Part shown: positions 2,844 to 44,619 of the stretch, piece by piece
Layout: each line of letters opens with the position of its first letter
Numbering within the stretch: the stretch's first letter is position 1
Source: a phage
Length of the DNA stretch: 44,855 nt
Assembly (NCBI GenBank): GCA_012164735.1
Contig: GCA_012164735.1_4544.1
Reading direction: 5' to 3' (one strand)
Made by a program: the position numbers and the translations under genes
The notes under the pieces: model-generated
The model's database searches: none
The model's input: only the letters and a program-made list of their open reading frames with translations
Told to the model about the DNA's origin: nothing

Positions 2844-3049
2844 GTGAATAGTTATGCAGTTTTATTGCATAAACTAAGCGGGACAAAAAGCGGGACAAAC
2901 AAGGGGCGGGACAAAGCGGGACAGCACCCCAGTCCCGCCCCGGATGGCGCGGCTTCCGGAGGAGCGGGACAGCGGGACAGCACCCCAGTCTTTCAGACTA
3001 GACGGGGGTCAGCGGCCCCCCTCGTCTGAGACTGAATAAAATCCGGAGA
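2844..3049. repeat. Copy 1 of a ~206-bp duplicated non-coding element: GCGGGACA iterons (direct at 2878, 2890, 2906, 2916, 2964, 2972; inverted at 2932) plus a 67-bp imperfect palindrome (2983-3049)
   Basis: Direct comparison with 20071-20276; immediately downstream of the primase-helicase gene. Confidence 0.8.
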
Positions 3050-3566: not shown

Positions 3567-3836
3567 ATGGGCCGTAGACGAGCTAATCAGCTTTCTTGGC
3601 ATATTCCCCTGCATTGCATACGAATATGGGCTAAGAACGCGATTGAGGGCGATTCCGTGTACTGGTGCTATCGCGACGATGTGAAGCCACTTACGCAGAC
3701 TCGCTACTTGCACCAGTTCGCAGCACAACATGGTTTCTATGTGCGGACTTCCTTGCAACCAATGGGAATACGTATTACATTACGCCGGAAGCCCGCCGTT
3801 GAGCGGGTAGGCAAACACTGGAGACTGAGCAAATGA
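3567..3836 (+). CDS. Hypothetical protein, probable diverged member of a tandem paralog family (C-terminus ERVGKHWRLSK)
   Basis: 89-aa ORF; RBS aagggg; 3' junction ctggagactgagcaaATGa duplicated at the next gene boundary. Confidence 0.4.
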   Translation: MGRRRANQLSWHIPLHCIRIWAKNAIEGDSVYWCYRDDVKPLTQTRYLHQFAAQHGFYVRTSLQPMGIRITLRRKPAVERVGKHWRLSK

Positions 3837-19949: not shown

Positions 19950-20276
19950 GCGGGACAGGCGGGACGTCCCGTTTTGTCCCGCCACAATTAAACCGCATAT
20001 ATACTCACTTTCATTGCATAAACTAAAAGCGGGACAGGGGAGCTGTCCCGATCTGTCCCGCACCCAAAATGTGAATATCTATTCAGTTTTCGTGCATAAA
20101 GTAAGCGGGACAAAAAGCGGGACAGAATGAGGCGGGACAAAGCGGGACAGCACCCCTGTCCCCGTCAGTGCTGCCGCGGGTTTTAGCCGATCGGGACTGG
20201 CGGGACAAACCCCAGTCTTTCAGACTAGACGGGGGTCAATGGCCCCCCTCGTCTGAGACTGAATAAGGTTTGTTTT
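19950..20276. repeat. Copy 2 of the duplicated element and additional iterons: GCGGGACA direct at 19950, 19959, 20029, 20105, 20117, 20132, 20142, 20200; inverted at 19975, 20044, 20054; 67-bp palindrome at 20210-20276
   Basis: Counted directly; 20071-20276 aligns with 2844-3049. Confidence 0.8.
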
Positions 20277-25139: not shown

Positions 25140-25747
25140 CCACATTTAAATTGTACGGCGTCTTAGGACGTCGTTTTGGTAAAGTGCATAAGCTGGACTG
25201 CTTCACACCTGGCGAGGGTATCACCGGCCTATGCGTGAAGTTGCCAGGCTTACAGGACTTTCTAATGTCGGCCCACCTGGAAAACATGATGTTCAAGGTG
25301 CGCAAGGGTAATCACACAATGACCGGCTACGACGAGTTGGGTGAGTTCCACGGCGACCGCGTAGTTACCATCGCGCCGGTTATGACTGGTGCTAAAAGCG
25401 GACTTGGACAATTGCTGGCTGGCGTAGCTATCGTGGTGGCGTCGTTCTACACTGGCGGGCTTGCCGCTGCCGCTTTCGGGGCTTCCGCTGCGACCGCCGC
25501 CGCTATCGGAACGGCGACGTTTTCGTTCGGTATGTCGCTTGCGCTGGGCGGCGCTATGCAATTGCTGTCACCGCAACCGAAAGGATTGCAGACACGGCAG
25601 GACGTGGATAACAAGGCGTCGTATGCGTTCGGCGGGCCGGTAAACACGACCGCGCAAGGCACAGCACTTGGTGTATTATGGGGCGAGCGTGAGATCGGCG
25701 GCGCTATTATTTCAGCCGGAATTGTAACCGAGGATTTGAACGAATGA
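25130..25747 (+). CDS. Tail assembly protein (lambda I-like)
   Basis: 205 aa with Gly/Ala-rich hydrophobic C-terminal half; synteny. Confidence 0.7.
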   Translation: MAMTTFKLYGVLGRRFGKVHKLDCFTPGEGITGLCVKLPGLQDFLMSAHLENMMFKVRKGNHTMTGYDELGEFHGDRVVTIAPVMTGAKSGLGQLLAGVAIVVASFYTGGLAAAAFGASAATAAAIGTATFSFGMSLALGGAMQLLSPQPKGLQTRQDVDNKASYAFGGPVNTTAQGTALGVLWGEREIGGAIISAGIVTEDLNE

Positions 25748-28700
25748 CGATTATCTACGACGTCACGGGCCATAAAGGCGGCGGTGGCAAACAGCACACC
25801 CCACAGGAGACGCCTGATAGCCTGCATTCGCTGGCTAAAATCCGCATCTTGCTCGCACTGGGCGAGGGCGAATTTGAAGGCATCCCCGACCCTAACGAAT
25901 TACGGCAGCGTGTATACCTGGACGGCACACCGATCCAGAACGCCGACCTGTCGGATAACTTCCCCGGCGCGCGCGTGGAGTTCCGCCCCGGCACGCAGCA
26001 CCAGGATGTGATTCACGGTTTTTCAGCGGTGGAAAGCGAGCAAACAGTAGGCGTAAAACTGGAACAGGGACAGCCGTGGGTCCGCCAGATTTCGGACACC
26101 AGTCTGGACGCGGTGCGTATTCGAATCGGTATTCCGGCCCTGTACACCAACGAAGATAACGGCGACCTGGTGGGCGGGCGCATCGACTATAAAATCGTTG
26201 TGTATACAGATAACGCCGATCCGCGCGAGTTCACATTCGCTGCCGTTGGTAAAACAATGTCGCTGTACGAGCGAGATCACCGCATCGAATTACCGTCTAA
26301 CGTTAACACCGGCTGGCGCGTGGAGGTGATCCGCACAACGGCAGACTCCACATCGGCGAAAGTGGTCAACGATATCCAGGTACAATCCATTACTGAGATT
26401 ATCGACGCCCGCCTGCGATACCCGCTAACCGCGCTGTTGTTCGTGGAGTTCGATGCTAAGGCGTTCCAGAACATCCCGCGTGTGTCCATCAAGTGCAAAG
26501 GCCGCAAAGTGCTGGTCCCGAACAACTATGACCCCGTGAATCATACCTATTCTGGTAACTGGGACGGCACATTTAAACGCGCCTGGACGGATAACCCTGC
26601 GTGGCACTGGTACGATATTTGTATTACTGAGCGCTTCGGCCTCGGTCGTCGTGTCAAACCACAAATGCTAAACCGTTACGCGCTCTACCAGATTGCGCAG
26701 CGCTGCGACCAGATGGTCAGTGACGGCAACGGCGGTCAGGAAATCCGATTTAAGAATGATATGTACATTCAATCGCAGACCGACGCCTGGACCGTGCTGA
26801 AGGATTTAGCGGCTATCTTTGCCGGTATGACCTGGTGGGGCAACCAGATGCTGAATATCGTCAGTGATCAGCCGGTCGCAGCGGTATCGCATACTATCAC
26901 CAACGCCTCGGTTATTGATGGTCGATTCGACTACGCATCGGGGAGCCAGAAAACTCGGTATTCCACGTTCTCGGTAGCCTACGGCAACCCGAAAAACCAT
27001 TACGAGGACGCCATCGCAACGGGCCAGCGTGTCGAACTGGTGCGCCGCCATAAGATTAACCGCCTTGATATTACGGCGATCGGCTGTACGCGTGAATCTG
27101 AAGCGCAACGCCGCGGACACTGGGCGCTAATCTCCAACCAGCTTGATCAGCAAGTTAGCTTTAAGGTTGGCATGGAGGGGTTATTCTTTATTCCGGGGAG
27201 CGTAGTCGCGATCGCAGATACTAACATTTCTGGCGGCTTCGAGACACGCGGCGGACGTCTGTTGTCAGATCCGGGCACGCGCACCGTGCTGAACACGGAC
27301 AGCGAAATCACGTTCCGCCCTGGCGATAAATTCCTGGTGCGCACCGATAGCGGTAATGTGGAGACTCGCGAGATTGCCAGCGTCAACGGCAACCAGGTCA
27401 CGCTAAAAACCGCACTGGACGCCGACCCAATTCCTGATCAGCCGTTTTGCGTTGATGGCGATGATATCCAGTTGCAGAAGTTCCGCATCACCGACCTGGA
27501 ATATGACGACGCTACCAGCACTTTCTCGGTGCGCGGGATTGAGTACAATGACAGCAAATATGATGCCGTTGATAATGGCGCGCGTCTTGATCCGGGTATC
27601 TTCACGCAAGTGCCGGACGGTGTAATGAAGGGGCCAGAATCCGTTACCATCACCCCGTCGCAGATCTCATCACAAGGCCAGCTAATCACCAACGTGGATA
27701 TTGTTTTTCCGCCGGTGAAGGATGCCGTTGTGTACGAAATCCAGTGGCGACGTACCAGCTTGCAGAATCTGGAAATCCAGTGGGGCAACGACTGGGTTAA
27801 CATCCCCCGCACGGCGTCGAATGGTGCGCATATCCCGAACGTGTTTTCTGGTAACTACCAGGCACGCGTCCGCGCTATCGGTATGGGCGAGATTTCATCC
27901 CCGTGGGTGTCGTCCGCCATCACGCCGGTGGAGGGTCGTCTTGGTGGGCTTAACGCGCCTATCATCACCAACGCGATTTCGGGCCTTCACCAAATTTTGT
28001 GGAAGTGGAATCACAACAACGCCGCAACGGATATTTCGTATACCGAGCTTGAAGTACGCAAGCTGGGCGAAACGGAATGGAAATTCCTAACCAACGTCCC
28101 ATATCCGGGGTCGGACTATGCGCAAACGTCGCTGGAGTTCGGGGTCTACCAGCAGTTGCGCGCACGCGTAGCGGATAAAATCGGCAACCTGTCAGACTGG
28201 TCCGATCCGTTCGACGGGCAGGTGAGTGACAAAGTTGACGAGTACATGCAGGGGCTTGATGACGAGTTCTTGACTTCCGAGGACGGTAAACACTTCCAGG
28301 AAGCAATCGACACCATTCCGCAAGGCATCTATGAGTCAATGCTTACGGACGCCCAGCAGTTATTCAACGCCCGCGCCGAGTATAAAGGGATTTATGCAGA
28401 AATTACGGTGGCGTATAACGTGGCGGCGGACGCTCACGAAGCCGTAGCGCAACTGGAAACGTTAATCGGCACGCGCCTTGACGACGCCGAAGCGTCAATC
28501 CACACGTTGCAGACCGCGCAAAGCACGCATGAGCAAGCATTCGCCCAGTACCAACAAACTGTTGCCGCTAAGTTCGGGGAGCAGGAAGCTGCCATCCAGC
28601 AGGTACAAACGGCAACGGCAGACGTAGCGGGCGCGCTGGCGGAGTATAAGACCCAGGTCGCGGCACAGTTCGGTCAGCAGTCCGCAGCTATCGAGCAGAA

Positions 28701-29190
28701 GATGACGTCCTCGTTTAACCATGCTGGCGGTAGCGCCACATACAGCCTTAAGGCTGGCGTGACGTATAACGGGACTTACTATGATGCCGGTATGCAGCTT
28801 TCCGTCGTGGCGGAAGGTGGCGCGGTTAAATCACGCATCGCGTTCAAGGCGGACCAGTTCTACATCATGCACCCATCTAACGGGTCGCTCTCGTCCGCGT
28901 TTATCGTTGACGGCGGGCAGGTGTATATTGACACGGCACGCATCAAGAACGCGTCTATTAACTTCGCGCAGATCACGGACACGCTGCAATCCAATAACTG
29001 GAATCCAGGTAACAGCGGCTGGCGTATCGCGAAGGATGGCGGGGCGGAGTTCAACAACGTTACGGTACGCGGCAACTTGTTCGCAACTACGGGTAACTTT
29101 GGATTCTCCGGCGGGTCAGTGACTATCGACGCAACGGGCGTCAACGTGCCATTACCTGGAGGGGGCAGGGTGAAAGTCGGGACGTGGTAA
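25744..29190 (+). CDS. Tail tip / host specificity protein (lambda J-like central fiber)
   Basis: 1148 aa following the I-like gene. Confidence 0.85.
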   Translation: MTIIYDVTGHKGGGGKQHTPQETPDSLHSLAKIRILLALGEGEFEGIPDPNELRQRVYLDGTPIQNADLSDNFPGARVEFRPGTQHQDVIHGFSAVESEQTVGVKLEQGQPWVRQISDTSLDAVRIRIGIPALYTNEDNGDLVGGRIDYKIVVYTDNADPREFTFAAVGKTMSLYERDHRIELPSNVNTGWRVEVIRTTADSTSAKVVNDIQVQSITEIIDARLRYPLTALLFVEFDAKAFQNIPRVSIKCKGRKVLVPNNYDPVNHTYSGNWDGTFKRAWTDNPAWHWYDICITERFGLGRRVKPQMLNRYALYQIAQRCDQMVSDGNGGQEIRFKNDMYIQSQTDAWTVLKDLAAIFAGMTWWGNQMLNIVSDQPVAAVSHTITNASVIDGRFDYASGSQKTRYSTFSVAYGNPKNHYEDAIATGQRVELVRRHKINRLDITAIGCTRESEAQRRGHWALISNQLDQQVSFKVGMEGLFFIPGSVVAIADTNISGGFETRGGRLLSDPGTRTVLNTDSEITFRPGDKFLVRTDSGNVETREIASVNGNQVTLKTALDADPIPDQPFCVDGDDIQLQKFRITDLEYDDATSTFSVRGIEYNDSKYDAVDNGARLDPGIFTQVPDGVMKGPESVTITPSQISSQGQLITNVDIVFPPVKDAVVYEIQWRRTSLQNLEIQWGNDWVNIPRTASNGAHIPNVFSGNYQARVRAIGMGEISSPWVSSAITPVEGRLGGLNAPIITNAISGLHQILWKWNHNNAATDISYTELEVRKLGETEWKFLTNVPYPGSDYAQTSLEFGVYQQLRARVADKIGNLSDWSDPFDGQVSDKVDEYMQGLDDEFLTSEDGKHFQEAIDTIPQGIYESMLTDAQQLFNARAEYKGIYAEITVAYNVAADAHEAVAQLETLIGTRLDDAEASIHTLQTAQSTHEQAFAQYQQTVAAKFGEQEAAIQQVQTATADVAGALAEYKTQVAAQFGQQSAAIEQKMTSSFNHAGGSATYSLKAGVTYNGTYYDAGMQLSVVAEGGAVKSRIAFKADQFYIMHPSNGSLSSAFIVDGGQVYIDTARIKNASINFAQITDTLQSNNWNPGNSGWRIAKDGGAEFNNVTVRGNLFATTGNFGFSGGSVTIDATGVNVPLPGGGRVKVGTW

Positions 29191-29196
29191 ATGAGA

Positions 29197-29219
29197 AGGG
29201 GCCATCCGGCCCCTTTTTT
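29197..29219. terminator. Bidirectional terminator between J-like gene and the minus-strand cassette
   Basis: Stem aggggcc/ggcccct, loop atcc, T6. Confidence 0.6.
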
Positions 29220-30183
29220 AATAGATATTAGGAATGACGAGTAACGGGGTGGGTACGGCAATATTTTTGCCCGGCATTTGGAATTGCTGCCGTGAGTAGT
29301 TGCCAATAACGCGGTTTTTAGCGATGCGCACATTATTACCCGCCATTCGTATCCCGTTCATGCGCACATGGTTATAGCCGCTGTTGTTCTCAATGAGCGC
29401 ACCGGTATATGAAAGCTGGATCAGACTATTACCGATGTGCTGGTCGCCGCCACCGATATTAATCGTGCGGTCGTAGACAAACGGCTTGTTTACCGTCGAG
29501 AACGTGACCTGCCCCTGGTTGTTAGTCATGGTGATACCGGTCCCCGGTGAGGGCGGCGTATTGTTGAATATCACCAGGTCCATATCAACGGCAGCGCCTA
29601 CGTCGTCAATCCCGCCATAGGACGCATTACGGACAATGATACTTCCGCCATCGAAGCCAACCGATACGTTGCCGTCGTCCCAGCGCGCGAACGGGACACC
29701 GCCGACGGGAAGCGGCATACTTCCGTTTACATGCACGCGCTGCGCATATCGGCAGGTCATTAGCCGTGCGACGTTGGATATTGCGGTGAAGTCCGTTGCG
29801 TTAGCTACCAGTAAGCCCGCATTGCGTGACCCCACCGGCAGCACTTCCATAATCACCCCGCCCCATGTTGGAAGCCCGCTGTATGCGTTATAGGCATCCT
29901 CACCGCGCAAGGTGATTCCGCCATCCCCGTTACGTTGTATCGACGTCACATAAAACGGGTCTGGCAAGACCAGGGTCTGGTCGAATACTTCCATCACTTC
30001 TACCGGATTAGTTAGGGCAACGACCAGTTCGGACCCCGGTGTCAGCGGTGTGTTAATGGTCAGCGTCTTGTCAGACTGACAGCGCTGATTAAAGGTAGTG
30101 CAGAACGACGGAGCGCGAAGGCCCGCGGTTATCTCCATGACAGGTCTACCGTCGTTGTAGTCGATAAGTATTCCAGCACCCAT
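29218..30183 (-). CDS. Hypothetical Gly/Asn-rich beta-rich protein (321 aa; ATG 30183 preferred over GTG 30192)
   Basis: RBS gggag 9 nt upstream of the ATG; no signal peptide; repeat-like beta-strand composition. Confidence 0.55.
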   Translation of the reverse strand: MGAGILIDYNDGRPVMEITAGLRAPSFCTTFNQRCQSDKTLTINTPLTPGSELVVALTNPVEVMEVFDQTLVLPDPFYVTSIQRNGDGGITLRGEDAYNAYSGLPTWGGVIMEVLPVGSRNAGLLVANATDFTAISNVARLMTCRYAQRVHVNGSMPLPVGGVPFARWDDGNVSVGFDGGSIIVRNASYGGIDDVGAAVDMDLVIFNNTPPSPGTGITMTNNQGQVTFSTVNKPFVYDRTINIGGGDQHIGNSLIQLSYTGALIENNSGYNHVRMNGIRMAGNNVRIAKNRVIGNYSRQQFQMPGKNIAVPTPLLVIPNIY

Positions 30184-30185
30184 TA

Positions 30186-30407
30186 TTACCACTCCCGTGA
30201 TTTAACTGATACAGTACCTGAGAAATTGCCGTCGCTATCGGCAGATAGGCCAGTGAAGCGCATGTCCACGCCTCCGGCAGGGACTTTTTGCCCGTCAACA
30301 TAACGCAACATGCAGCTTCCGTAAGCCACCGTAATGCAATCACCGTTGTTGCGTTCTACGGCACAACCGGACAAAAGAACAGCACAAATCATAATTAAAG
30401 TTTTCAT
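30186..30407 (-). CDS. Small lipoprotein (73 aa), candidate superinfection-exclusion protein (Cor/Llp-like)
   Basis: MKTLIMICAVLLSGC signal peptide with lipobox LSGC; strong RBS aggag; location between tail tip and fiber genes. Confidence 0.6.
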   Translation of the reverse strand: MKTLIMICAVLLSGCAVERNNGDCITVAYGSCMLRYVDGQKVPAGGVDMRFTGLSADSDGNFSGTVSVKSREW

Positions 30408-30487
30408 GTTATCATCTCCTATATTTGGTTGAGTTTTAGTATTACACCGCTCGATCAAGAATGCAACCAATTTATGAGGATTTAGCT

Positions 30488-32242
30488 ATGGCAGCGGGTA
30501 CACTATCCGTAACGAATAACAGCACCGCGGTGACTGGAGACGGCACAACGCTTACCGCGCTGAAGGCGGGCGACTTCCTGTCGCTGGTAGTAGGGCAAGT
30601 CCCTTACACTATTGCTATTGCATCCATTGAGAGCGACACCGCGCTTACACTGGCGCTGCCGTTCGACGGCCCAACGGCAACCGGCCTCGCATGGGATAGC
30701 GTGGCGCGCGATACCATGTCCCTTGCAACGATGGGCGTAACCGTCCAGGCGCAGAAAGCACTACGCTTGATGATCGCGGATGAGAACAACTGGCGCGCAA
30801 TCTTCGGCGACGATGAAGAAATCACAGTGACGTTACCTAACGGGCAGGTTATGCAGGGCATGTCATGGGGCTATCTGTCACAGTTGATGAAACAGATCGA
30901 CCCCGTTGAGATGCGCAACCTGCAACAACAAGCCGCCGCATCTGAAGCAGCCGCGCAAGGATTTCGTAACGAGGCTGAAGGATTTCGAGACGGCGCGCAA
31001 GGATACCGCAACGAGGCGCTCCAATTCCGCACCGACTGCGAAGGGCTGAAGAACGAAACGACAAACCTTCGCAACGATGCGCTCCAATTCCGCACCGACT
31101 GCGAAGGGCTGAAGAACGAAACGACAAACCTTCGCAACGATGCTAACACAGCTAAGACTGGCGCGGAGACGGCACGCGATCAGGCGCAGAACATCGCCGA
31201 CGGTATGGACCCTGGACAGTATATGCAGAAATCTGCAAACCTGAGCGATGTAGTGGATAAGGCGCAAGGCCGCGCGAATATGGGTCTTGGCACTACAGAT
31301 GCCGTGGAGTTTGGTGGGGCCACCCTCAATGGTCCCACCCGCATCAATGGCTCGTTGCTGTTGGGGCGTAACCAGTGGGATGGGTCTAGCTGGGGGGTCT
31401 ACGGACTACAATCGTCATTCGTCATCATGTCGCCGGATGGAGACTCCGAGCCGGGATTTTACATCAGGCCGCTATCGGGTGCGCCTGGGTACGCAACGTC
31501 GTTCACCTATAATCTCGCGATTAATCTTTTCAGCACCGGTGCTCGCATCAAGGCGGTTAACTTCGCATCCAGCACTACGACTATGGGATATAACGAGATG
31601 TGGTCACGTGCATGTTTCCAGGGGCAGCCATACGAAGCCCAGGCGGGGGTTGAGAACTACCAATCGCTTGTCGCAGGTACTTGCGGTACGGTATCACACG
31701 GATTTTACGGTGGCGTTGCGTTCGGCATGATGACTGCTGGCAGGGCTGGGTGGCCTGTCGGTCAGATCTCGATCGGCACGCAGGACAGAGCCGCTGACGG
31801 CACTATCGGATTACAAATGCACTTCCGTTTCCATGCATCCGGTAACATTACGTATACGGGGCCGGCGGGGAAGGGGTCATTCCAGCGAATCCCGGCATCT
31901 GACCGCAACATTAAGCATGATATTAAAGACGATAAATCCAGCACAGCATACGATAACATTCGAGCCATTCGATTCCGTAATTTCGTATTTAATGATGACG
32001 AGCAGGAGCGTATTCGTCGCGGGGTTATCGCACAGGAGCTTGAAGAAATCGACCCGCTTTATGTTAAGCACCGCGAATACCACAACATGGAGCTTAACGG
32101 GCCGAAGATTACGCGACTGGAGCTTGACACGACGCCGCTGTTACTGGACACAATGCGAGCGTTGCAGGATACGATTAAGCAGGTGGAGGAGTTGAAGGCG
32201 GAGATCGCGGCGTTGAAGCAGGCGGAAGAGTTGAAGAAATAG
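30488..32242 (+). CDS. Tail fiber with coiled-coil repeat region and C-terminal intramolecular chaperone (self-cleaving, peptidase S74-like) domain
   Basis: Start at ATG 30488 with RBS gagga; 63-bp perfect tandem repeat 31018-31143; C-terminal SDRNIKHDIKD motif from 31898. Confidence 0.75.
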   Translation: MAAGTLSVTNNSTAVTGDGTTLTALKAGDFLSLVVGQVPYTIAIASIESDTALTLALPFDGPTATGLAWDSVARDTMSLATMGVTVQAQKALRLMIADENNWRAIFGDDEEITVTLPNGQVMQGMSWGYLSQLMKQIDPVEMRNLQQQAAASEAAAQGFRNEAEGFRDGAQGYRNEALQFRTDCEGLKNETTNLRNDALQFRTDCEGLKNETTNLRNDANTAKTGAETARDQAQNIADGMDPGQYMQKSANLSDVVDKAQGRANMGLGTTDAVEFGGATLNGPTRINGSLLLGRNQWDGSSWGVYGLQSSFVIMSPDGDSEPGFYIRPLSGAPGYATSFTYNLAINLFSTGARIKAVNFASSTTTMGYNEMWSRACFQGQPYEAQAGVENYQSLVAGTCGTVSHGFYGGVAFGMMTAGRAGWPVGQISIGTQDRAADGTIGLQMHFRFHASGNITYTGPAGKGSFQRIPASDRNIKHDIKDDKSSTAYDNIRAIRFRNFVFNDDEQERIRRGVIAQELEEIDPLYVKHREYHNMELNGPKITRLELDTTPLLLDTMRALQDTIKQVEELKAEIAALKQAEELKK

Positions 32243-32245
32243 GAG

Positions 32246-32269
32246 AGGGGCCATACGGCCCCTTTTTTT
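32246..32269. terminator. Bidirectional terminator at the convergence point of the plus and minus transcription blocks
   Basis: Stem aggggcc/ggcccct, loop atac, T7. Confidence 0.65.
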
Positions 32270-32843
32270 AGTTTGAGTTTTCCCAGTCCATTTTGCGCCG
32301 CACCAGCGGGCTTTCGTAATACTCCTTTCCCTCCACTTCCACTAAGGGCCAGTCATTAACAATCACGTATGGCTCCGCGATATCCTCGATCACGCCGTGC
32401 GCACTATGTTGTCCGAAATCTACGCCCACCAGGATAACCCCAGCAACGCGACGAGTGAGATACTCGCGAGCGCAACGAGCCTCTACCAGTCCGCGACGGA
32501 TGCCGCTGGTGGCCTTAACCTCATAGGTCCAGACGGCATCAATCATGTGTTCCCGGAAGTCGGGACCGGACTTAACCTTGCGCTTACCGACCATGATAAT
32601 ATCGCCGCGGTCGATTGTATTAGCGCTAAACAGGCCGGTACGCATTAGCAAACCTTGCGGGATACAGCTACGCCCGCCCGCCTGCCCTTCGAGGTACATG
32701 CCTGCAAACATTTCGCCCAGCACACCGACGAGCCTGCTTTGCTTGCACGCGTCGGACTTATACCGCCACTGGTCAAACTCTATGCTTGCGATCATTGCCG
32801 CCAGGTGGAATTGTTTACCTGTTATTTCATATTCGCCGTACAT
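32268..32843 (-). CDS. Putative PD-(D/E)xK-type nuclease
   Basis: 191 aa; GDIIMVG ... TYEVK arrangement; RBS gaggg. Confidence 0.45.
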   Translation of the reverse strand: MYGEYEITGKQFHLAAMIASIEFDQWRYKSDACKQSRLVGVLGEMFAGMYLEGQAGGRSCIPQGLLMRTGLFSANTIDRGDIIMVGKRKVKSGPDFREHMIDAVWTYEVKATSGIRRGLVEARCAREYLTRRVAGVILVGVDFGQHSAHGVIEDIAEPYVIVNDWPLVEVEGKEYYESPLVRRKMDWENSN

Positions 32844-41073: not shown

Positions 41074-41856
41074 TTAACGGCGGCGACGTTTACGTGGCGC
41101 TTCGTCTTCGTCGTCGTCCTCATCTTCGTCATCGCGTGGCTTACGACGTTTGCGAGGTTTTTCATCTTCCTCATCGTCGTCGTCATCGCGGCGCTTGGAT
41201 TTCTTGGACTTGCGCGGCTTGTCATCTTCATCATCGTCATCACGACGTTTTGACTTTTTGGACTTGCGCGGTGCTTCGTCTTCGTCGTCGTTGTCCAGGT
41301 CTTCATCGGAGCAAGAAGACCCGCCACCTCCGAAGGCTTCGCCGTCTTCACGGAATCGCAGACCCAGCAAGCCAGCCCCGAGACCCTTGCCGTTGGTATT
41401 GTTCCATGCCCAAATATCAAGGGACACGTTGCAATAACAACCGGAGTAGATCTCCTGGCCTTCAATCTCGTCGCCGTCGATGGTCAGACCTTGTTCAGTC
41501 TGCTTCTCGCCGAGTGACGTTTGAATGATTGGTTGTTTGAACGATTTGGCGTTGATATACAACATGCCTTCGAATTCTTCGGTTACTTCATCGCGCTCGT
41601 CGCCGTCGCGAACTGCACATTCCTTAGAATCCTGGGCGTAGTGGCGGTCCATCCACTTATCGGCATTCTTCTCGGATTTCAGCTTATCGGTGAGCACTGC
41701 GCGCGCTGCCGCTTCCACTTTATCCACCTGCGGATCTTCTTTATCCAGAAGAATCACGGCACGGTATGCCGGTTTTTGTCCATCCTGTTTAGGGGTATCA
41801 CGTTCCCAAATTTTCAGGAAGCATACGCGCACATTTTTCAGGTTGACTTTAGCCAT
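41074..41856 (-). CDS. Single-stranded DNA-binding protein-like (phage SSB-type fold) with long alternating basic/acidic repeat C-terminal tail
   Basis: MAKVNLKNVRV ... YSGCYCNVSLDIWAWNN ... FGGG core; C-terminus of PRKSKKSKRRDDDD-type repeats; RBS gagga. Confidence 0.55.
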   Translation of the reverse strand: MAKVNLKNVRVCFLKIWERDTPKQDGQKPAYRAVILLDKEDPQVDKVEAAARAVLTDKLKSEKNADKWMDRHYAQDSKECAVRDGDERDEVTEEFEGMLYINAKSFKQPIIQTSLGEKQTEQGLTIDGDEIEGQEIYSGCYCNVSLDIWAWNNTNGKGLGAGLLGLRFREDGEAFGGGGSSCSDEDLDNDDEDEAPRKSKKSKRRDDDDEDDKPRKSKKSKRRDDDDDEEDEKPRKRRKPRDDEDEDDDEDEAPRKRRRR

Positions 41857-44100: not shown

Positions 44101-44619
44101 TTAATCTTCCAGTTCGAAATAGGTTTCGACGATTTCTTTTAACTCTGTGTGGAAGTCTTCGACGTCGTCATCTTCCAGCTTGGCGATTGATTTGATCTCG
44201 AACGATTCCAGCAGGTCGTCGAATTCGTCGTTCGCATCGTCGTCATCACCACCGGCGATAATCGCGGCATACTGTTTGATTTCGTCGCGCATCTCCGCCA
44301 GCGGATCGGCATCTTTCTTACCTTTGCCTTTCGCCGGTGCTTTTTTAGCCTTAGCCGGTTTTTCGTCTTCGGCTTCTTCGTCGTCGTCATCTTCTACGAC
44401 TTCTTTTTTGGCCTTACCTTTCGCCGGTGCTTTTTTAGATTTAGCCGGTTTTTCGTCTTCAGCTTCATCGTCGTCATCTTCGACAACTTCTTTTTTGGCC
44501 TTAGACGGCTTCTTGTCTTCCTGTTTACCAACGGCAGCGCCAACGGTTTCATAATGCTTTGCAATGGTTTCCAGTGCTACTACGCCGCGAGTGATCAGGT
44601 TTACGATTTGCTCAAACAT
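44101..44619 (-). CDS. Highly acidic protein with two ~34-aa tandem repeats (start at ATG 44619); first gene of the minus-strand block
   Basis: RBS ggag; KKEVVEDDDDE ... KPAK ... KKAPAKGK repeated twice; ~100-bp DNA direct repeat 44320-44520. Confidence 0.55.
   Translation of the reverse strand: MFEQIVNLITRGVVALETIAKHYETVGAAVGKQEDKKPSKAKKEVVEDDDDEAEDEKPAKSKKAPAKGKAKKEVVEDDDDEEAEDEKPAKAKKAPAKGKGKKDADPLAEMRDEIKQYAAIIAGGDDDDANDEFDDLLESFEIKSIAKLEDDDVEDFHTELKEIVETYFELED

Follow-up and report, generated by a model that had tools for sequence, protein, structure and literature searches.

The lateral tail fibre gene of a Dhillonvirus-like phage contains two byte-identical, directly adjacent copies of a 63-bp segment, and we consider it highly likely that they represent a three-heptad duplication produced by slippage or unequal crossover within the coiled-coil shaft of the fibre. 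The window analysed in this study, a stretch of 44,855 bp, comprises the genome of a Dhillonvirus-like E. coli siphophage in all but complete form, and its first 25 kb are approximately 90% identical to known members.

The repeat and the fibre gene that carries it

The two copies occupy positions 31018–31080 and 31081–31143, and direct comparison found them to be as identical as the initial annotation had stated; compared position by position, the sequence shows unbroken period-63 identity across 31016–31143 (65 + 63 bp). Tandem Repeats Finder delimited the repeat at 31007–31143 (period 63, 2.2 copies, 98% matches, score 267). No exact repeat in the window is longer, the next one reaching 30 bp, and because the chance expectation of a 63-bp exact match is about 44855 × 4^-63, the match is not attributable to chance. 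Since bases are shared at the copy flanks, the phase of the copy boundary is ambiguous by 2–3 nt: in heptad phase, copy 1 spans 31016–31078 (aa 177–197, ALQFRTD CEGLKNE TTNLRND) and copy 2 spans 31079–31141 (aa 198–218), both on the plus strand, and the coordinates given first are those of the other phase. The junction within 31000–31160 reads CGCAACGATGCGCTCC. The repeat is in frame in the plus-strand open reading frame (ORF) 30461/30488–32242, the translation of which holds ALQFRTDCEGLKNETTNLRND twice, in agreement with the earlier claim of two in-frame copies of the encoded peptide. Just 5′ of the repeat, the plus-strand DNA at 30952–31019 is periodic at 21 bp, or one heptad (Tandem Repeats Finder period 21, 3.2 copies; QGFRNEAEGFRDGAQGYRNEA), and encodes AQGFRNE, AEGFRDG, and AQGYRNE. 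Three minus-strand ORFs lying over the repeat (30849–31127, 30871–31149, and 30878–31267) were rejected as by-products of it; the plus-strand ORF has full-length homology.

The gene itself (30488–32242, plus strand, 584 aa) was assigned to the lateral tail fibre by PHROG 1980, homology, and synteny. The profile phrog_1980 “tail fiber protein” covers aa 1–583 in a full-length match (E = 5.9e-134), which together with a Pfam Peptidase_S74 domain confirms that the product is a tail fibre, as first proposed. An in-frame ATG upstream at 30461 would give a protein of 593 aa; annotated relatives all begin with MAAGTLSV. Neither the 584-aa nor the 593-aa form had an exact sequence match in the protein collection searched. 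The DNA of the gene is 92.8% identical to that of the BMA1 “tail tip protein”, and homology extends to 150 Dhillonvirus-type records. Genes at this locus are ordered as gpJ-like central fibre (25744–29190), DUF6453 and lipoprotein (29218–30470, minus strand), lateral fibre, and phrog_10558 (32268–32843, minus strand), which places the fibre gene 3′ of the gpJ-like central fibre and RBP/exclusion locus and 5′ of a conserved opposite-strand gene of 191 aa. A synteny check revealed the same order in Bas84 and Bas85 (“tail fiber protein”) and in the metagenome sequences L008, L009, and L013. In Dhillonvirus this gene encodes the lateral tail fibre, a proposed binder of O-antigen as the primary receptor (PMC8594841; PMC11990801).

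The encoded protein consists of four regions, all on the plus strand. The N-terminal anchor domain (30488–30892, aa 1–135) is conserved across the family, with invariant columns densest at aa 1–145 in an alignment of 34 sequences (A1), and the lateral fibre gene has been described as conserved at its far 5′ end only (BASEL paper, PMC8594841). It is followed by an alpha-helical heptad-repeat shaft (30902–31204, aa 139–239), probably a trimeric coiled coil, and by a distal tip or putative receptor-binding region (31271–31897, aa ~262–470) that is mosaic among relatives: in the mismatch table it diverges block-wise, and the monomer model has low confidence there. The fourth region is a Peptidase_S74 intramolecular chaperone (IMC) domain (31898–32065, aa 471–526; Pfam PF13884, scoring 44 bits where the gathering cut-off is 22). 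Within its motif ASDRNIKHDI (Ser-x4-Lys), Ser471 and Lys476 are invariant in the 34 homologues of alignment A1, and we take them to be the catalytic dyad, as in endosialidase IMC domains generally. A comparable layout, with an elongated N-terminal coiled coil, a T5-like tip, and a C-terminal IMC domain, is known for the orthologue Bas85 Gp29 (PMC11990801).

Residues 156–239 form twelve consecutive heptads, namely AQGFRNE, AEGFRDG, and AQGYRNE, then ALQFRTD, CEGLKNE, and TTNLRND twice over, and finally ANTAKTG, AETARDQ, and AQNIADG; the duplicated unit is thus exactly three heptads (21 aa). Across 111 family proteins the heptad register is strict, position a being T (51%) or A (47%) and position e being K/R (89%), with position d occupied by I, F, A, and Y (51, 21, 15, and 5, respectively) and also by L/W. 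The AlphaFold monomer contains a single uninterrupted helix over aa 139–239 with local pLDDT of 53–83, the best values (76–83) falling at aa 180–210, on the duplicated residues; the model is poor globally (mean pLDDT 50.8, pTM 0.26), and the secondary structure of the shaft is the one element taken from it. The strict heptad pattern and the predicted helix accord with the repetitive helical region in which the initial annotation had placed the in-frame duplication. Among solved sequences, the nearest counterpart of the shaft is T7 gp17 (7boz), matched in a phmmer search (E = 3.3e-5). By analogy with T7 gp17, with the model of Bas85 Gp29 (PMC11990801), and with the trimer dependence of the S74 domain, we infer that aa 139–239 form a trimeric coiled coil.

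Copy number and length variation among relatives

Comparison of repeat number in related phages, as proposed in the initial annotation, revealed both one-copy and two-copy forms together with other heptad indels. Ten carriers of this shaft allele (FRNE/ALQFRTD) were compared, namely the window, BMA1, PS2, and L007–L013. Two copies are present in three of them: the window, the isolate BMA1 (PQ178821, Ecuador), and the metagenome scaffold L013 (sample ERZ28620176 / SAMEA104467482). The remaining seven, comprising the isolate PS2 (PV637039) and the metagenome contigs L007–L012, have no second copy, and their flanks of the single copy are base-for-base identical. The window, BMA1, and L013 each contain the junction string CTTCGCAACGATGCGCTCCAATTCC a single time, and it is absent from all one-copy loci. 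The metagenome contigs with one copy were assembled from short reads, a process in which a collapsed repeat is possible in principle. Of 50,697 phage records, only 2 have the allele, and a tblastn search with the shaft, a mode in which T7 was not recovered, returned PS2 and BMA1 as the only matches above 60% identity. Exact 24-mer scans for the 63-bp unit gave no match in viral_contigs and genome_contigs and a single match, the one-copy contig L007, among metagenome contigs. A three-copy allele was found nowhere among the sequences searched.

These comparisons bear on whether the second copy might be an assembly or sequencing artefact in a genome that really has one copy. Scaffold L013, with a 100-N gap exactly at the repeat, shows that this region is hard to assemble, particularly from short reads, and most of the related contigs have one copy. 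Against this, the identical junction occurs in BMA1, which was independently isolated and assembled and is only ~92% identical over the gene and ~90–92% in the flanks, and again in L013, where the diagnostic junction lies to the right of the gap. Moreover, assemblers are more prone to collapsing perfect tandem repeats than to creating them, and the product here is an intact in-frame ORF with its heptad register preserved. An artefact is therefore very unlikely.

The 63-bp unit is one of several length variants in this shaft. If the gap in L013 has a length of zero, a further 63 bp, comprising the first three FRNE heptads, would be missing from this scaffold, the ORF of which would still be intact at 563 aa. 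Contig L008 carries a perfect 21-bp duplication (AAGGATTTCGTAACGAGGCTG), equal to one heptad, in the 21-bp periodic stretch. PS2 has a 15-bp deletion (AASEA) of 5 aa, a non-heptad length that leaves a spacer of 93; given this deletion, the register is not always preserved, or at least not at the N-terminal end of the shaft. All variants seen (63-bp, +21-bp, and −15-bp) stay in frame. The occurrence of one or two copies, a 21-bp gain, and a 15-bp loss in the same ~300-bp shaft among relatives upholds the earlier suggestion of a hotspot for length variation.

A similar pattern is found across the family. We defined the spacer as the distance from the SWGYLS anchor motif to the NL(S/A)(D/G)(V/L) motif and obtained it for 112 proteins (homologues and the window). 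It is 98, 105, 112, 119, 126, or 133 aa in 111 of the 112, all values being 0 mod 7, and the exceptions to this series of sevens are the shaft-less jat/UHP65 type (16) and PS2 (93). Where proteins of the family contain perfect tandem duplications at the amino-acid level, the period is always 7, 14, or 21. With one copy, this shaft allele is short, with a 98-aa spacer; the duplication extends it to the 119 aa of the window, the family mode being 133.

Origin and age of the duplication

In the one-copy allele, the two occurrences of a 10/11-nt direct repeat, CGCAACGA(G/T)GC, lie 63 bp apart on either side of the 63-bp segment, and the repeat corresponds to RN(E/D)A codons recurring in the heptad pattern. 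The plus strand of the window contains the upstream microhomology CGCAACGAGGC at 31007–31017, which in one-copy alleles lies exactly 63 bp from CGCAACGATGC. At 31070–31080, CGCAACGATGC followed by GCTCC forms the junction microhomology, a novel joint diagnostic of at least two copies, and CGCAACGATGC recurs in the sequence at 31133–31143 as the downstream microhomology. The polymorphic base at these three repeat positions is G, T, and T, a pattern that places the crossover in the GC dinucleotide following the polymorphic base. Under slippage or unequal crossover, the downstream repeat would have paired with the upstream repeat in replication or recombination, and such mispairing would leave G...T...T at the repeat positions and the novel joint CGCAACGAT-GC-GCTCC. 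A single mismatch (G/T) in the slippage partner, at a distance of 3 nt from the joint, limits perfect homology at the crossover to 8 + 2 nt. An 8-bp hairpin (TGCGAAGG/CCTTCGCA) is possible in each unit, with a z-score that is inflated by co-folding two identical copies, and could conceivably bring the microhomologies together.

Microhomology flanks all three indels, with CGCAACGAnGC at the 63-bp duplication, AAGGATTTCG at the 21-bp duplication of L008, and AAGCnGCCGC at the 15-bp deletion of PS2. Of the 17 pairs of exact 7-mer direct repeats in the one-copy shaft, 13 have a spacing that is a multiple of 21 bp, compared with 0.33 expected, and none of 1000 codon shuffles reached 13. Because heptad-coding DNA is periodic at 21 bp, slippage partners are located at multiples of 21 bp, and indels are heptad-quantised.

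The initial annotation took the perfection of the duplication to imply a recent event, which holds only loosely. A shaft block of ~350 bp is 99–100% identical in all carriers, whereas its flanks are 80–93% identical (differing by 7–20%), indicating that the shaft is a recently exchanged module. Divergence of the allele is at most ~1% among complete carrier sequences, corresponding to ~0.5 expected differences between two 63-bp copies, so that a duplication dating back to the origin of the allele would also be expected to have identical copies, and their identity is weak evidence of recency. Carriage by BMA1 and L013 further indicates that the duplication predates this genome.

It is a real possibility, to which we give somewhat less than even weight, that there was one older duplication, either spread by recombination or ancestral to the shaft allele and followed by repeated later deletions, with no recurrent fresh duplication. 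The contrast between the nearly identical shaft block and its diverged flanks, which points to recent modular exchange, fits this history, and deletion between perfect 63-bp repeats should far outpace duplication at a 10/11-nt microhomology, as is general for the frequencies of RecA-independent slippage. On the other hand, seven of the ten carriers have one copy, and copy number and flank relatedness do not go together: over 31217–32242 the window differs from the one-copy contigs L008 and L009 at 16 and 20 sites, respectively, but from the two-copy BMA1 at 66. This pattern calls for either recurrence of the copy change or recombination inside the shaft, both being compatible with these sequences. 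The sequences likewise fit either direction of change, deletion in the two-copy allele restoring exactly the one-copy allele. For a duplication by slippage or unequal crossover, the two-copy state would be a tolerated length polymorphism, able to expand or contract.

Tail fibre genes are classical targets of programmed diversification, and repeats in a receptor-recognition gene might suggest the repeat pair of a diversity-generating retroelement or a phase-variable contingency repeat. We consider this extremely unlikely. The copies are 100% identical and adjacent, without the adenine-specific differences between template and variable repeat that mark a retroelement target, and the 63-bp unit, present twice and a multiple of 3, is no many-copy, short, frame-shifting unit of a contingency locus, so that a gain or loss of copies is unable to turn the gene off. 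Its place, moreover, is the shaft rather than the ligand-binding tip. Both candidates were therefore rejected.

Consequences for the fibre and comparison with known systems

The duplication would enlarge the helical shaft from ~80 to 101 residues, which at ~0.148 nm per residue corresponds to a gain of ~3.1 nm, or ~26%; the lengthening of the fibre shaft anticipated by the initial annotation is thus exactly three heptads and, by this estimate, ~3 nm. With a unit of 21 aa, the a/d register would be kept, and the fibre should still fold, with the anchor, the distal tip, and the S74 chaperone domain left untouched. Receptor specificity would remain unchanged, being expected to depend on the distal tip, which lies outside the duplication. 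At most, the phenotype would be a modestly altered reach or flexibility of the fibre that makes the first O-antigen contact, and we expect at most a modest kinetic effect because specificity should sit in the distal tip and the spacers of viable relatives span 16–133 aa.

Alternatively, the three heptads may have been selected for adaptive length tuning, with a longer fibre adsorbing better through thicker O-antigen or capsule. The proposal that Dhillonvirus lateral fibres engage O-antigen first (PMC8594841; PMC11990801) is compatible with such selection, as are the shift in spacer from 98 to 119, toward the family mode of 133, and the repeated in-frame tail fibre duplications that occurred under coevolution in the Enterococcus phage EfV12-phi1 (PMC6365445). 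We nevertheless regard it as improbable: three two-copy carriers are known, a change of 3 nm is small, and the occurrence in viable phages of spacers from 98 to 133, and even of the shaft-less jat/UHP65 type (16), suggests that length is loosely constrained. An equally doubtful extension of this idea is that the Dhillonvirus shaft is a heptad-quantised hotspot of length tuning, in which 21-bp periodicity channels slippage into register-preserving changes of one to three heptads, fibre reach and tip rotation evolve rapidly and reversibly in response to O-antigen or capsule thickness, and the 63-bp duplication counts as one such step, recurrent and under selection.

A tolerated duplication by slippage or unequal crossover is a known kind of change in a known family, namely the in-frame tandem duplication of part of a fibrous shaft, and reveals no new mechanism or protein family. 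No relevant work on heptad duplications in tail fibres emerged from a literature search; the exact duplication is already public in the BMA1 genome, apparently without comment. Heptad-quantised spacers and 21-bp-periodic microhomology are tidy yet unsurprising for coiled-coil genes. The locus is a clean natural example of how periodic, coiled-coil-coding DNA restricts slippage to structurally harmless indels of heptad multiples, by which tail-fibre length becomes a quantised and easily evolvable trait. In Dhillonvirus genomes, copy-number heterogeneity and assembly gaps are likely to occur here, and the junction sequence is usable as a simple PCR or typing marker. The shaft also offers a natural, register-safe place for engineering fibre length in small E. 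coli siphophages for therapy and synthetic biology.

Among known fibres, the closest counterparts are those of Bas85 (RuthEpting), Gp29, and BMA1, which resemble the window fibre in gene position, anchor, heptad shaft, distal tip, and S74 IMC domain; the lateral fibre of BMA1 (XMT57252.1) has the same identical 63-bp duplication. Bas83–85, Gluttony, and most family members have another shaft allele, which is longer, is built of IKTDTQA-type heptads, and gives a spacer of 133 aa. The proximal rod of T7 gp17 is similar to the shaft in the phmmer-only match (E = 3.3e-5) of ALQFRNEAETFRNQAEGFKNE... with AQGFRNEAEGFRDG...ALQFRTD, and the proximal region of gp17 is a triple-helical coiled coil (bioRxiv 10.1101/2025.10.22.683886), but T7 gp17 belongs to a podovirus virion, has other anchor and distal domains, and is without an S74 chaperone domain. 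A C-terminal S74 domain with Ser and Lys five residues apart (SDRNIK) is shared with the L-shaped fibre pb1 of T5 and with endosialidases of the K1F/phi92 type, and the solved sequence closest to the C-terminus of the window fibre is that of the T5 L-shaped tail fibre C-terminus (8hqz, E = 1.6e-13). T5 pb1 is also analogous as an O-antigen-binding lateral fibre of a siphophage; it differs in its length of ~1,400 aa and its other shaft, and the duplication in the window lies outside the shared S74 domain. The change itself is most similar to that in the Enterococcus phage EfV12-phi1, where an in-frame tail fibre tandem duplication upstream of the binding domain varies in copy number (PMC6365445). 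The unit in EfV12-phi1 is 1.8 kb, emerged during coevolution, and came with measured changes in infectivity, whereas the duplication in the window is a natural polymorphism of 63 bp.

Variation along the lateral tail fibre gene

Each copy of the 63-bp unit places one cysteine at the 'a' position of the heptad core, namely Cys184 (window 31037-31039) and Cys205 (31100-31102), and the fibre shaft has two cysteine layers owing to the duplication. Among 111 family members, the frequency of cysteine at heptad 'a' positions is about 0%.

Phages PS2 and BMA1, which encode the unit in one and two copies, respectively, differ from the window at further sites of the fibre gene. The PS2 gene has a 15-bp deletion (AASEA) aligned to window 30932-30946, with AAGCnGCCGC on both sides, which leaves a spacer of 93 aa between the SWGYLS and NLxxx motifs, the sole non-heptad length among the shaft-bearing fibres examined. 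At window 32225-32227, BMA1 has TAA whereas the window has GAA, so the BMA1 fibre is five residues shorter and ends early inside the C-terminal helix of the chaperone domain.

A near-complete related phage, the 45,053-bp metagenome scaffold L013 (ENA ERZ28620176 scaffold_193), contains a 100-N gap at its positions 3704-3803, exactly within the repeat region of the fibre gene and bordered on the left by GCAGCCGCGCTCCAAT. Closing this gap at zero length leaves an ORF of 563 aa intact, in which the three FRNE heptads (AQGFRNE, AEGFRDG, and AQGYRNE) are missing and two ALQ units, the 63-bp units with the ALQFRTD heptad, are retained. Either another 63 bp have been deleted in this phage, or the shortened gene is an artefact of assembly.

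The 5' part of the fibre gene (about 300 bp, window 30488-30790), which encodes the anchor domain, differs by 10-20% from all relatives retrieved, and this divergence extends even to those nearly identical to the window farther downstream. The recombination breakpoint in the gene is placed at about 30790-30860.

Other repeats in the genome

Two paralogous intergenic modules of approximately 165 bp each were observed at window 2876-3039 and 20103-20266, and they have exact blocks of 26-30 bp in common. Both contain four to six copies of GCGGGACA(A/G) with a period of about 12 bp, and after these copies comes a conserved, terminator-like CCCCAGTCTTTCAGACTAGACGGGGGTCAnnGGCCCCCCTCGTCTGAGACTGAATAA hairpin. 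These modules may represent a regulator-binding array plus terminator.

Further imperfect tandem repeats are located close to the right end, at window 41100-41291 and 44327-44503, and comprise a 54-bp repeat (2.3 copies, 73% matches), a 90-bp repeat (2.0 copies, 90% matches) and TCG/CTTCGT-rich runs. They probably lie within low-complexity acidic/basic coding sequence.

Receptor and fibre modules compared with known phages

Between the gpJ-like central fibre gene and the lateral fibre gene, the minus strand (window 29218-30470) carries genes for a DUF6453 membrane protein of 324 aa and a phage lipoprotein of 73-94 aa. This arrangement matches that of the Dhillonvirus relatives Bas84 and Bas85, in which LptD is the predicted target of the central fibre. 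In contrast, BMA1 and PS2 have the window's shaft allele, but a plus-strand pair plus Cor (FhuA-type) replaces the DUF6453/lipoprotein locus. The terminal-receptor and lateral-fibre modules therefore assort independently.

The FRNE/ALQFRTD shaft allele (window 30953-31036, aa 156-183) is rare, and IKTDTQA-type heptads are the usual Dhillonvirus form. The proximal rod of T7 gp17 (ALQFRNEAETFRNQAEGFKNE) is closer to this allele than IKTDTQA-type heptads are, a likeness suggestive of an exchange of modules with T7-like podophages.
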